Shown here: one piece after another, positions 22,805 to 24,973 of the stretch | Layout of the letters: each line of letters opens with the position of its first letter | Numbering within the stretch: position 1 is the first letter of the stretch | From: a virus | Taxonomy: Duplodnaviria > Caudoviricetes | Strand: one strand, 5' to 3' | IMG/VR virus record: IMGVR_UViG_3300011409_000016 | Span: 1-24,973 of that record | DNA length: 24,973 bases | Made by a program: the position numbers and the translations under genes | Notes under the pieces: model-generated | Databases searched by the model: none | What the model saw: the letters and a program-made list of their open reading frames with translations, nothing else | Told to the model about the DNA's origin: nothing

Positions 22805-23003
22805 ATCCTACCTTCGGGTACTCGAACGAGATGGCCGACGCTATCGGGAACTGTCGGCTGGTGAAGCACGGGCCATGTTTGAAGGCACGGAGAAACAGCG
22901 TTCACATTTTTGGAACCTGCATCATCGCCAGAACATCGTGGTCATCGACGGAGATTTTTTCTGGGACGAAGGCCCGGTGCCCAAGATAGGAAAGAGAACA
23001 TGA
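22794..23003 (+). CDS. Hypothetical protein
   Basis: MKNESYLRVLERDG...; ATGA overlap with the SLOG gene. Confidence 0.62.
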   Translation: MKNESYLRVLERDGRRYRELSAGEARAMFEGTEKQRSHFWNLHHRQNIVVIDGDFFWDEGPVPKIGKRT

Positions 23004-23371
23004 TCGCCATAGGCGTCGTGGGCTCGAGACGTCGCGATGATCTGGACTCGATGCGAGAGGTTGCACGAGCCGTGGAAGTGTTGATGCTCCGCTATCGGAA
23101 CAAGATTACGGCCATCGTGTCCGGTGGGTGTCCGACAGGTGCGGATCGGCTGGCTCCTCTCCTCGCAAAGAAATACGGGCTTACGCTCGTGGTCCATTAT
23201 CCAGATTGGAAACGCTACGGACAGGCGGCACCCTTCGTGCGCAACGAGAAAGTAGCCGACGACGCTTCGTATCTGGTGGCAGCCGTAGCAGAGGACCGGA
23301 CCGGAGGCACGGAGGATACGATCAAAAAGTTTCTCAAGAGGAGGCCGAAGCGATGCCTGACGCTCGTGTAA
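23000..23371 (+). CDS. SLOG superfamily protein (YspA/DUF2493-like)
   Basis: Start at ATG 23000; IGVVGSR, IVSGGCPTGAD, PDWKRYGQAAPFVRN and GGTEDTI motifs. Confidence 0.88.
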   Translation: MIAIGVVGSRRRDDLDSMREVARAVEVLMLRYRNKITAIVSGGCPTGADRLAPLLAKKYGLTLVVHYPDWKRYGQAAPFVRNEKVADDASYLVAAVAEDRTGGTEDTIKKFLKRRPKRCLTLV

Positions 23372-23613: not shown

Positions 23614-23810
23614 CTCCACCAGAAGGGACAGAAAGTAGCACCTCAAAAGGGGGGGGTATCGTACCTGGTACGCACCGGGCTCCTCCTAACCCACGGATTT
23701 TGCCCTGGCATGCCATCCGGAATATCTAGCAATTTCGTACTTCGTATTTTCTGGTGTAAATATGGACGTAATAAATCCAAAAGTCGGCCAAATCCGCACG
23801 CTTCGTTCTT

Positions 23811-24121
23811 CCCTTTCTGCCCTGCAGAGAGGGATAATAGAGTCCTCGGGTGGGAGAGCGGTAGGAAGGGTACGCAGCCTAGAGCCCAAGCGGCCAAGTG
23901 CTAATGCGGTAATCCCCTTCAGGTCTTCCCCACAGCGAGCTTTCTTTCTCAACAAAATAGCGACCGGCTTCCAGAAAAGCGTTCTAAGGAAGGCACCTAA
24001 ATCCTTCCTGTCCTGCGGGACACGCAAGCACTGGAGACAAACCCACCAATGGCTGGTCGCCTTCAGTATCCAATGTCGAGGCTGAAATCGAATGCGTAGC
24101 ACGCAATGTGTGGGCAGAAAG
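23811..24121 (+). ncRNA. Candidate large structured non-coding RNA (unassigned)
   Basis: Nested stems with G-U pairs consistent with the + strand; no convincing ORF; details in findings. Confidence 0.5.
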
Positions 24122-24144
24122 AAGTCAAGCAGCGTTGGATATGA

Positions 24145-24215
24145 GATGAGGACAGGAGCCTAGCACGCTCCTGTAAATCCCTCGTGGCATTCAGCCGCGA
24201 TTGGTTCCAAGGCCA
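24145..24215 (+). ncRNA. Three-hairpin RNA motif, copy 1
   Basis: GATGAGGA-[CAGGAGC/GCTCCTG]-TAAATCCC-[TCGTGGC ATTCA GCCGCGA]-T-TGGTTCCAAGGCCA. Confidence 0.75.
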
Positions 24216-24222
24216 AACGAAA

Positions 24223-24291
24223 ATGAAAATCGAAATGTCCGACGCTCGTTTCGCGGAGATGCTCGCAAAGTTCGGTGGAAGGAAATCCTAA
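24223..24291 (+). CDS. Possible 22-aa peptide
   Basis: MKIEMSDARFAEMLAKFGGRKS, starts 7 nt after RNA motif copy 1; TAATG-coupled to the next ORF; no clear SD. Confidence 0.4.
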   Translation: MKIEMSDARFAEMLAKFGGRKS

Positions 24292-24431
24292 TGACATTCG
24301 CATATAGAGGGTATCTGATTCGAAAGAACGATCTCACCGGGCTCTGGTGGGTAGAGAAGGGTGGTTCGTTCATCTGCTATGCGACAGACCGAACGCATGC
24401 GATGAAAATTATCGATACCGAACTGAGCTGA
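24291..24431 (+). CDS. Small hypothetical protein (46 aa)
   Basis: MTFAYRGYLIRKNDLTGLWWVEKGG...AMKIID; GGAAGGA RBS. Confidence 0.72.
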   Translation: MTFAYRGYLIRKNDLTGLWWVEKGGSFICYATDRTHAMKIIDTELS

Positions 24432-24501
24432 TGAGGACAACGCATCCCCGTGCGTTGTAAATCCCCGGCTGCATTCCGCAGTCGTTATGGTTCCAAGGCC
24501 A
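24430..24501 (+). ncRNA. Three-hairpin RNA motif, copy 2
   Basis: GATGAGGA-[CAACGCA/TGCGTTG]-TAAATCCC-[CGGCTGC ATTCC GCAGTCG]-TTA-TGGTTCCAAGGCCA. Confidence 0.75.
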
Positions 24502-24540: not shown

Positions 24541-24822
24541 ATGAAAACCAACAAGAGCGTCAAGTCGAATCGTGGCACGTTCGCTTCCTTCGCATTCGTG
24601 AAGATGACCGACAAGGTCCAGGCTGGCATTCAGAGCGTGGTGCTTGACGCGGCCAAGAAAGCGAAGAGGGGCACCGTAGCGGAAATCGCGGCCGTGGCCG
24701 TGAAGCTCGGACTCAAGAAGGTCACGGACCAGAATCCGCTGACGCAAACGCATGTCCACCTGAATCGTCTCAAGGCTCTGAAGGCCGTGAAGCGCATCGA
24801 GTCCGCGAAGAAAGCAGCGTAA
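24541..24822 (+). CDS. Lys/Ala-rich basic protein, possibly winged-helix DNA-binding
   Basis: MKTNKSVKS...GTVAEIAAVAVKLG...HLNRLKALKAVKRI; start chosen from the GATGATGAAG-N9-ATG leader shared with the next gene. Confidence 0.72.
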   Translation: MKTNKSVKSNRGTFASFAFVKMTDKVQAGIQSVVLDAAKKAKRGTVAEIAAVAVKLGLKKVTDQNPLTQTHVHLNRLKALKAVKRIESAKKAA

Positions 24823-24904
24823 GAAACAAAACGCTGTGTGGTGCGCAGGAAAACGGTCCTGCGTATCACAGAGCACTTTTGCTCTGATGATGAAGGAGAA
24901 GGCA

Positions 24905-24973
24905 ATGGCCATCCGAAAATTCTATCGCGGCTCCACCACCTTCAAATGCAATGTCTGCGGACGCGGCACGAGA
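24905..24973 (+). CDS. Small Zn-finger-like protein (partial)
   Basis: AAGGAG RBS; MAIRKFYRGSTTFKCNVCGRGTR, runs off the window. Confidence 0.7.
   Translation, partial: MAIRKFYRGSTTFKCNVCGRGTR

Follow-up and report, generated by a model that had tools for sequence, protein, structure and literature searches.

Permuted twister-type ribozymes predicted on both sides of a small-gene cassette in a phage contig

RNase III processes the early RNA of phage T7 and the lambda pL leader behind nutL. A second described arrangement is that of clustered hammerhead ribozymes, which flank single prophage genes, cleave, and are proposed to process long phage transcripts (Perreault et al., 2011, PMC3088659; this and the other papers are cited here from the portions of their text available to us). 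A processing role has also been proposed for bacterial hammerheads and twisters, and their purpose near phage genes is called undetermined in the portions available of PMC6765202. Twister ribozymes are built on the essential stems P1, P2 and P4, with P3 optional and common, and the type-P5 permutation is open at P5 (PMC5408937). The known permutations named in the available text of PMC10085705 are P1, P3 and P5.

The DNA analysed here, called the window, is the whole 24,973-nt record of a virus contig with an estimated completeness of 43%. Terminase, portal, major head and tail tube genes lie on its minus strand. A structured motif occurs twice among small plus-strand genes at the right end, which gene size and position suggest to be an early region. 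As in RNase III processing of T7 and lambda, the predicted cuts would fall between early genes of one transcript, and, as in the lambda pL leader, a boxA-type word stands in a putatively structured leader ahead of the first cut. Unlike the cut made by RNase III, this one would be the RNA's own; it would need no host nuclease and would produce 5'-OH and cyclic-phosphate ends. With the clustered prophage hammerheads (Perreault et al., 2011, PMC3088659) the locus shares neighboring ribozymes that flank a gene or short block whose identity varies, but the ribozyme class is another one, and cleavage, shown there, is predicted here. With Twister type P5 (RF02684, clan CL00120; reviewed in PMC5408937, as far as available) it shares the element order, the hairpin-closed P1, the U-A-A site, the G-A-G-G-R strand, P2, P4, an 8-nt L4 with U and A-A, two pseudoknots and a location between phage genes. 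It differs from the Rfam Twister-P5 consensus in a 7-bp P3, a three-pair P2, a lineage-specific P3 loop, and T2 and T1 that are CC/GG and GGA/UCC instead of GC/GC and GGG/CCC, and from type P5 generally in having no clear P5 stem. Judging from this layout, we hold with high confidence that the repeats are circularly permuted (type-P5) twister-type ribozymes with the optional P3, and no new class. Class, permutation, optional P3 and phage setting were already known; new is the form joining P3 to CC/GG, which Rfam misses.

Layout of the two repeats

The repeat copies lie at 24145-24215 and 24430-24501, both on the plus strand of the 24,973-nt record. An earlier note, made from the sequence, had reported two copies with conserved blocks and two compensatory 7-bp stems, and both observations hold. 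GATGAGGA, TAAATCCC and TGGTTCCAAGGCCA are present in both copies, and a gapped three-block pattern gave 2 matches in the window vs. 0 in 100 dinucleotide shuffles, which confirms the copies as genuine. The stems pair as described and are found in the minimum-energy and centroid folds of both copies. Each copy has three hairpins, with a fold z of -3.36 (copy 1) and -2.83 (copy 2), while the reverse strands fold worse (z = -1.69 and -1.02). A descriptor of the structure, composed after the copies had been seen, matched the window twice and 40 shuffles not at all. Sequence identity between the copies is confined to short blocks; no third copy was found within the 24,973-nt record, and the pair is absent from the 20 largest families of an ungapped repeat finder. 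The elements were assigned as follows.

24145..24215, plus strand: copy 1, putative type-P5 twister-type ribozyme (folds, pattern, descriptor, model E 8.6e-9)
24145-47, plus strand: copy 1 P2', GAT
24148 and 24149, plus strand: copy 1 predicted general-base G, then A
24150-52, plus strand: copy 1 T1', GGA
24153-73, plus strand: copy 1 P1 hairpin
24174-76, plus strand: copy 1 TAA with predicted cut U24174^A24175
24177-79, plus strand: copy 1 P2, ATC
24180-81, plus strand: copy 1 T2, CC
24182-24200, plus strand: copy 1 P3 hairpin
24202-04/24213-15, plus strand: copy 1 P4, TGG/CCA
24205-12, plus strand: copy 1 L4, TTCCAAGG
24430..24501, plus strand: copy 2, putative type-P5 twister-type ribozyme (folds, pattern, descriptor, model)
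24430-32, plus strand: copy 2 P2', then G 24433 and A 24434
24435-37, plus strand: copy 2 T1'
24438-57, plus strand: copy 2 P1
24458-60, plus strand: copy 2 TAA with predicted cut U24458^A24459
24461-63 and 24464-65, plus strand: copy 2 P2 and T2
24466-84, plus strand: copy 2 P3
24488-24501, plus strand: copy 2 P4/L4

The element order is thus P2', G-A, GGA, P1 hairpin, U^AA, P2, CC, P3, and P4 with the loop U-UCC-AA-GG. Where the Rfam Twister-P5 consensus reads cGCA-GAGgG-P1 hairpin-UAA-UGCg-GC-linker-CGG-UCcCAAGC-CCG, the window reads GAU-GAGGA-P1 hairpin-UAA-AUC-CC-P3 hairpin-UGG-UUCCAAGG-CCA, an element-by-element match, and alignment to the consensus gives P2 as GAU/AUC, T1 as GGA/UCC, T2 as CC/GG and P4 as UGG/CCA. 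Both copies have P1, P2 and P4 in type-P5 order (open at P5, P1 loop-closed), and their UAA triplet, with its conserved adenine, aligns to the UAA of the consensus. The active-site G and A stand at the end of P2' (G24148/A24149, G24433/A24434); this G-A is invariant in a 24-row alignment gathered with search patterns that demanded it. T1 comprises three Watson-Crick pairs between L1 and L4, and T2 two between L2 and L4. The T2 dinucleotide is described as a conserved GC in the available text of PMC5408937; CC with GG in the window is a compensatory change. P2 has three pairs in the window in place of the four given there, and the same review cites a suggestion that a change in its length might disturb the active site. 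Under P4, between TGG and CCA, L4 (TTCCAAGG) carries the conserved U and A-A. The alternative permutation, type P1 (RF03160, open at P1 with the cleavage site near the 5' end), does not fit, P1 being a closed hairpin here, and the twister-P1 model found no match at E<=1 on the record. As to P5, copy 2 has a 4-bp CUGA/UCAG helix in its minimum-energy fold that is absent from the centroid, and the fold of copy 1 has no such stem.

Homologues, covariation and detection by Rfam

A scan of viral databases, proposed in the earlier note, did bring further copies: the exact core was found in 6 loci of viral contigs with 8 copies. Pattern scans fixing only short words returned 38 loci from viral contigs, 66 from metagenomes and 23 from genomes; the 23 bacterial and archaeal matches included 2 with a P1-like stem and 0 with a paired P2, none convincing. 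A P1 stem with 5 or more pairs was present in 48 of 103 distinct pattern matches. P2 paired at all three positions in 44/48 matches with this stem vs. 3/55 without it (p 1e-20), and the paired P2 took seven different sequence forms; a fourth pair could form in just 3 of the 48. GGA and the TCC in the last loop vary together (T1): across the 29 viral matches with P1, in which both letters were free, the third T1 pair was A/U in 25, G/C in 4 and a mismatch in 0. The outer P4 pair was T-A in 20, C-G in 17 and A-T in 7 of the 48 homologues. The descriptor found 182 distinct copies in 333 sequences, with T2 as GC/GC (129), CC/GG (45), AC/GU (7) or CG/CG (1), counts that show range only, since the descriptor requires pairing. 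P3 occurs together with CC/GG in 26 distinct copies from 18 clusters, and three metagenome loci are near-identical to the window. Conservation tracks RNA pairing, including pseudoknots and G-U pairs possible on one strand, and not DNA identity.

These homologues also bear on two pairings that the earlier note had drawn. Pairing of GGA with the TCC of TAAATCCC around a bulged TAAA is possible on paper but not conserved, as TCC within TAA-NNN-CC is present in only 18/30 long matches, and the TCC chosen was the wrong one. A GAUG/CAUU pseudoknot is likewise possible on paper, but the two words co-occur in only 6/30 long matches, 5 of which are near-identical relatives of the window's phage. The note's broader reading, that a structured RNA with a function recurs with each gene cassette, appears right, and a self-cleaving or processing element, the activity predicted below, was on its list; its statement that no known family applies gives way to the type-P5 twister layout.

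Several features of the homologous loci (numbered with L) were seen in passing. L020 carries at 598-678 a copy of the window's form in which P2 is paired at 2/3 positions and P1, P3, T1 and T2 are intact. L198, L206, L196 and L017 hold three to five type-P5 twisters per ~1.5 kb, each between small genes. GUGACA is common to the P1 loops of L002, L003, L005, L006 and L077, and L020 has CUGAGA; we presume that these words could be a T-loop-like motif. The P3 loop (24189-24193, 24473-24477), GC-A(A)UYYY-GC, recurs in the lineage under differing stems, and loops like it occur in ~16/26 CC/GG copies with P3 vs. 0/35 GC/GC copies with P3. By eye, it has no constant partner as an anti-Shine-Dalgarno word or T1 decoy, and both ideas were dropped.

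Rfam searches, the other check suggested in the earlier note, found no relevant family in the window at gathering thresholds or at E<10. The Twister-P5 model run on the record itself did not report the copies, which stay below the gathering threshold of RF02684 (37.6 bits); the Rfam consensus is without P3, and the model has no pseudoknot pairs. All 8 copies with P3 and CC/GG in L002-L007 were missed, and in L007 an Rfam Twister-P5 match (44.5 bits) lies 800 bases downstream of the exact-core locus. Across the viral loci, 13 matches in 20 of 38 pass Rfam Twister-P5, and 22 further matches came from 20 loci picked from 205. After removal of two duplicates, 34 distinct matches were left, 32 of them parsed by the descriptor. 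The parsed matches have a 3-bp P2 in 24 cases, T2 CC/GG in 9 and P3 in 11, and their T2 kinds are GC/GC, CC/GG, CG/CG and AC/GU; 7 of the 32 are of the window's exact core type without P3, and none joins P3 to CC/GG. The P3, three-pair P2, T2 and T1 deviations each occur in Rfam-passing copies, but the combination is below threshold, and Rfam misses the window's joint P3, 3-bp P2 and CC/GG. A model made from 10 Rfam-passing twisters lacking P3 aligned with the whole of copy 1, taking P3 as an insertion (E 8.6e-9), and matched copy 2 in two parts (E 5.7e-7 for the 5' part, 0.0032 for P4/L4), with the best match elsewhere at E 0.014; this test is partly circular, because 8 of the 10 training sequences came via our own pattern.

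Predicted cleavage, its products and the cassette

Taking identity and cleavage together, it is very likely that each copy has the type-P5 twister layout and catalytic bases with an added P3 and cuts itself. Computed or observed here are the element order, P1-P4, the covariation of P2 and T1, the complementarity of T2, and the conserved G, U-A-A and L4 A-A, and the copies sit between small co-oriented phage genes; the parts in cleavage given to T1, T2, the G and the A follow twister biochemistry. Each copy would cut its own RNA between the U and A of UAA (24174/24175, 24458/24459). T1 (GGA with UCC) and T2 (CC with GG) would bring L4 onto the cleavage site, where G24148/G24433 would act on the 2'-OH and A24175/A24459 would serve as general acid. 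In the portions available of PMC11662667, ~94% of the natural twisters assayed cleave, and twisters tolerate the presence of P3 and imperfections in P2, with no dependence on P2 length, whereas cleavage is lost with pseudoknot mismatches or catalytic-base changes; the literature pool there consists of type-P1 candidates, and those portions hold no type-P5 results. Neither kind of defect is present in the window copies.

With 100 nt of leader in a pseudoknot-free fold, the P3 of copy 1 has a pairing probability of 0.06-0.09, and a competing GAGG/CCUC pairing appears, while P1, P3 and P4 of copy 2 reach at least 0.94; these folds ignore pseudoknots and co-transcriptional order. Because the competing fold is predicted to disrupt P3, copy 1 may be slower or switchable. 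An account in which the copies derive from twisters without cutting, and act as a fold that stabilises or is bound by protein, possibly by way of the P3 loop GC-A(A)UYYY-GC, could draw on that fold, on the concentration of similar loops in CC/GG copies, and on a 3-bp P2 and a T2 that departs from the published GC (PMC5408937). We consider it improbable: the catalytic G, U-A-A and L4 A-A are all in place, neither pseudoknot is broken, covariation is seen in P2 and T1 although these were not selected for, most natural twisters assayed cleave (PMC11662667), and the likeness of the P3 loops may be shared descent, the copies coming from related phages.

If both copies self-cleave, two cuts would divide the presumed early transcript into the leader, a 284-nt two-gene RNA and the downstream mRNA.

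24175..24458, plus strand: predicted excised RNA of 284 nt with 5'-OH and 2',3'-cyclic phosphate ends and two small ORFs (twister chemistry, PMC5408937)

A polycistronic RNA would in this way be processed without protein and its gene blocks stabilised separately. Upstream pieces would end in the P1 hairpin directly behind a stop codon, downstream pieces would begin with a 5'-OH followed by hairpins P3 and P4, and the stability and translation of each block would be set separately. Given cleavage, we regard such processing of the polycistronic transcript as the probable role. The tandem cuts might instead serve mainly to make circular mRNA, the ends of the 284-nt RNA refolding as a chimeric twister and being joined by the ribozyme or by host RtcB. 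Ends with 5'-OH and cyclic phosphate match RtcB ligase substrates, as would those predicted for the 284-nt RNA, and the P2, T1 and T2 sequences common to both copies would make the ends compatible. Circularity was also raised for the clustered phage hammerheads, but spliced or circular products sought there were not found, according to the available text (PMC3088659). No RtcB was found in any of 5 related phage records, of which two are 98% complete or more, and a pattern search over the whole records gives a single copy of the window's form in 4 of these 5, so the tandem is not general; in record G004 a second twister, of another form, stands beside the single copy. We give this circular reading little credence.

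The genes and structures around the copies are listed next.

23000-23371: SLOG-family gene (YAcAr, PF10686), directly upstream of the leader
23833..24144, plus strand: conserved leader, read as non-coding (alignment of relatives)
23833-38, plus strand: -10-like GATAAT (alignment)
23944-53, plus strand: CTTTCTCAAC, which we take to be a boxA-like word
23960-69/24051-60, plus strand: 10-bp long-range helix (compensatory changes in relatives)
24223..24291, plus strand: 22-aa ORF (similar ORF in L089)
24291..24431, plus strand: 46-aa ORF, its TGA overlapping copy 2
24541..24822, plus strand: basic ORF of 93 aa downstream of copy 2 (weakly similar to phrog_925, HTH DNA-binding, E 0.0076)
24833..24874, plus strand: long near-perfect hairpin of 17 bp between the 93-aa gene and the next gene

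Relatives preserve the ~300 nt that precede copy 1, which contain further helices with compensatory changes. Changes on both sides were seen for 15/42 predicted pairs (6 sequences, three of them nearly identical), and the window's leader folds modestly better than shuffles (z -1.67). No Rfam match was found for the leader, a promoter scan gave no sigma-70 site at its threshold, and a leader motif scan of viral contigs returned two records, both already among those compared. We regard the leader as a candidate structured RNA, not an established one; cleavage of copy 1 would detach it as a separate RNA of ~330 nt. An ORF across it (23762-24085) was treated as a non-gene, as relatives carry large indels there. 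The boxA-like word matters for another idea, a put-like antiterminator in the earlier note or an intrinsic terminator, by which the repeats would act on RNA polymerase. RNA of the put type consists of two stem-loops that make RNA polymerase resist terminators. The early-type region would suit such a role, and the P3 hairpin of copy 2 was flagged as terminator-like, but only one of the two copies was flagged and the count of 2 equals the chance value of 1.9. What is conserved in the repeats is the set of twister core bases, and for antitermination the leader's boxA-like word is a better candidate; we found nothing that supports the put-like proposal and think this role extremely improbable.

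Copy 2 overlaps the TGA of the 46-aa ORF by 2 nt, as the earlier note's placement of it at an upstream stop implied. For that ORF, Pfam gives no family and PHROG a faint match (E 0.043). Searches with the 93-aa protein gave nothing in Pfam and no Atlas match at 0.9 or above, and its ORF is kept behind the ribozyme in L003, L004, L077, L089 and L103. The hairpin region that follows (24823-24905, 83 nt) has a fold z of -6.49 and is possibly a terminator or an RNase III-type site; in L007, by eye, a long hairpin also follows a comparable gene. Another short ORF of L007 (~1805-1902), located between this distant relative's two twisters, ends like window 24223-24291, with S-D-x-R-x-A-E ... K-F-G-G-x-K (by eye).

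Near-identical phages differ in the cassette that the copies enclose. It measures 214 nt with two ORFs in the window, 214 nt in L059, 220 nt in L089 and 425 nt in L003, and in L004, L068, L074 and L103 it is 89 nt with a different, 27-aa ORF. In 3/4 DNA runs, contigs skip from 24217 to 24428 or 24451, and in two of these the skipped stretch is replaced by 85 other letters. The lengths (214, 89 or 425 nt), the differing ORFs and the skips would all be expected if the repeats served first of all as DNA sites where small cassettes are exchanged by recombination, their RNA structure coming second. That is very improbable, given that conservation follows pairing, that the copies have only short blocks in common, and that homologous exchange in conserved flanks between phages explains the swapping equally. 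The earlier note's cassette shuffling survives as a side effect of the predicted RNA-processing element: the conserved ribozyme ends would probably double as homology for exchange of the genes between them. A swappable cassette flanked by ribozymes would resemble an arrangement already described for other phage ribozymes.

Stop codons, L4 and the use of the locus

The copies (loci L002-L332) were clustered by shared flanks into 134 clusters, 116 of them with enough upstream DNA. Of these phage type-P5 twister clusters, 92/116 start no more than 6 nt from an upstream stop codon (ORF of at least 40 codons), against a null of 7.1 at random positions (sd 2.4, maximum 14) and of 17.8 with the ribozyme's first letters behind random DNA (sd 3.9, maximum 31). 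Tight packing of phage genes, with no regulation, could be the cause. On the other side of the ribozyme, an ATG 7-10 nt past L4 with no other Shine-Dalgarno-like word was found in 6/32 GG vs. 2/91 GC clusters (Fisher p 0.004), and the six are all among the 17 GG clusters with P3. Such an ATG follows the AAGG of L4 in the window (24205-24225) and in L003, L004, L007, L054, L055, L056, L068 and L104. The window's is that of the 22-aa ORF; it stands 10 nt past the AAGG of copy 1, the interval holding no further Shine-Dalgarno-like word, and in L004 and L054 the ORF started from L4 exactly fills the inter-ribozyme gap.

These distances allow a further, tentative reading, which we think unlikely on balance: phage type-P5 twisters would be translation-coupled switches around a swappable cassette, in which cleavage frees a Shine-Dalgarno word in L4. 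P2', the catalytic G and T1' would lie under the ribosome terminating on the upstream gene, and because 92/116 clusters start this close to a stop codon, translation would gate folding and cleavage. In the window's lineage, the change from GC to GG in L4 would also make the catalytic loop the next gene's Shine-Dalgarno word, AAGG, 7-10 nt before ATG, and self-cleavage with release of the pseudoknots would turn that gene on, a natural version of the engineered ribozyme ON-switch. Against L4 as a Shine-Dalgarno word, the six GG clusters stem from related phages, AAGG is weak and several other window genes also have no strong word, and the last G of AAGG is paired in the predicted 3' product. A literature search by title and abstract found nothing on stop adjacency or ribosome binding by L4; a study of natural twisters in bacterial 3' UTRs, cited in PMC6765202, may overlap.

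Considered as a molecule, the element would add modestly to what is known, as a sub-family of the type-P5 twisters found in phages. Rfam does not report the sub-family with P3 and CC/GG, so counts of phage ribozymes are currently too low. The locus is of value as a setting in which the purpose of ribozymes near phage genes can be probed. Near-identical phages with different tiny genes between the same two ribozymes, abutment on stop codons far above the chance level, and, in some copies, L4 at ribosome-binding distance from the next start would each permit a test of whether cleavage sets mRNA stability, is coupled to translation or releases a ribosome-binding site.
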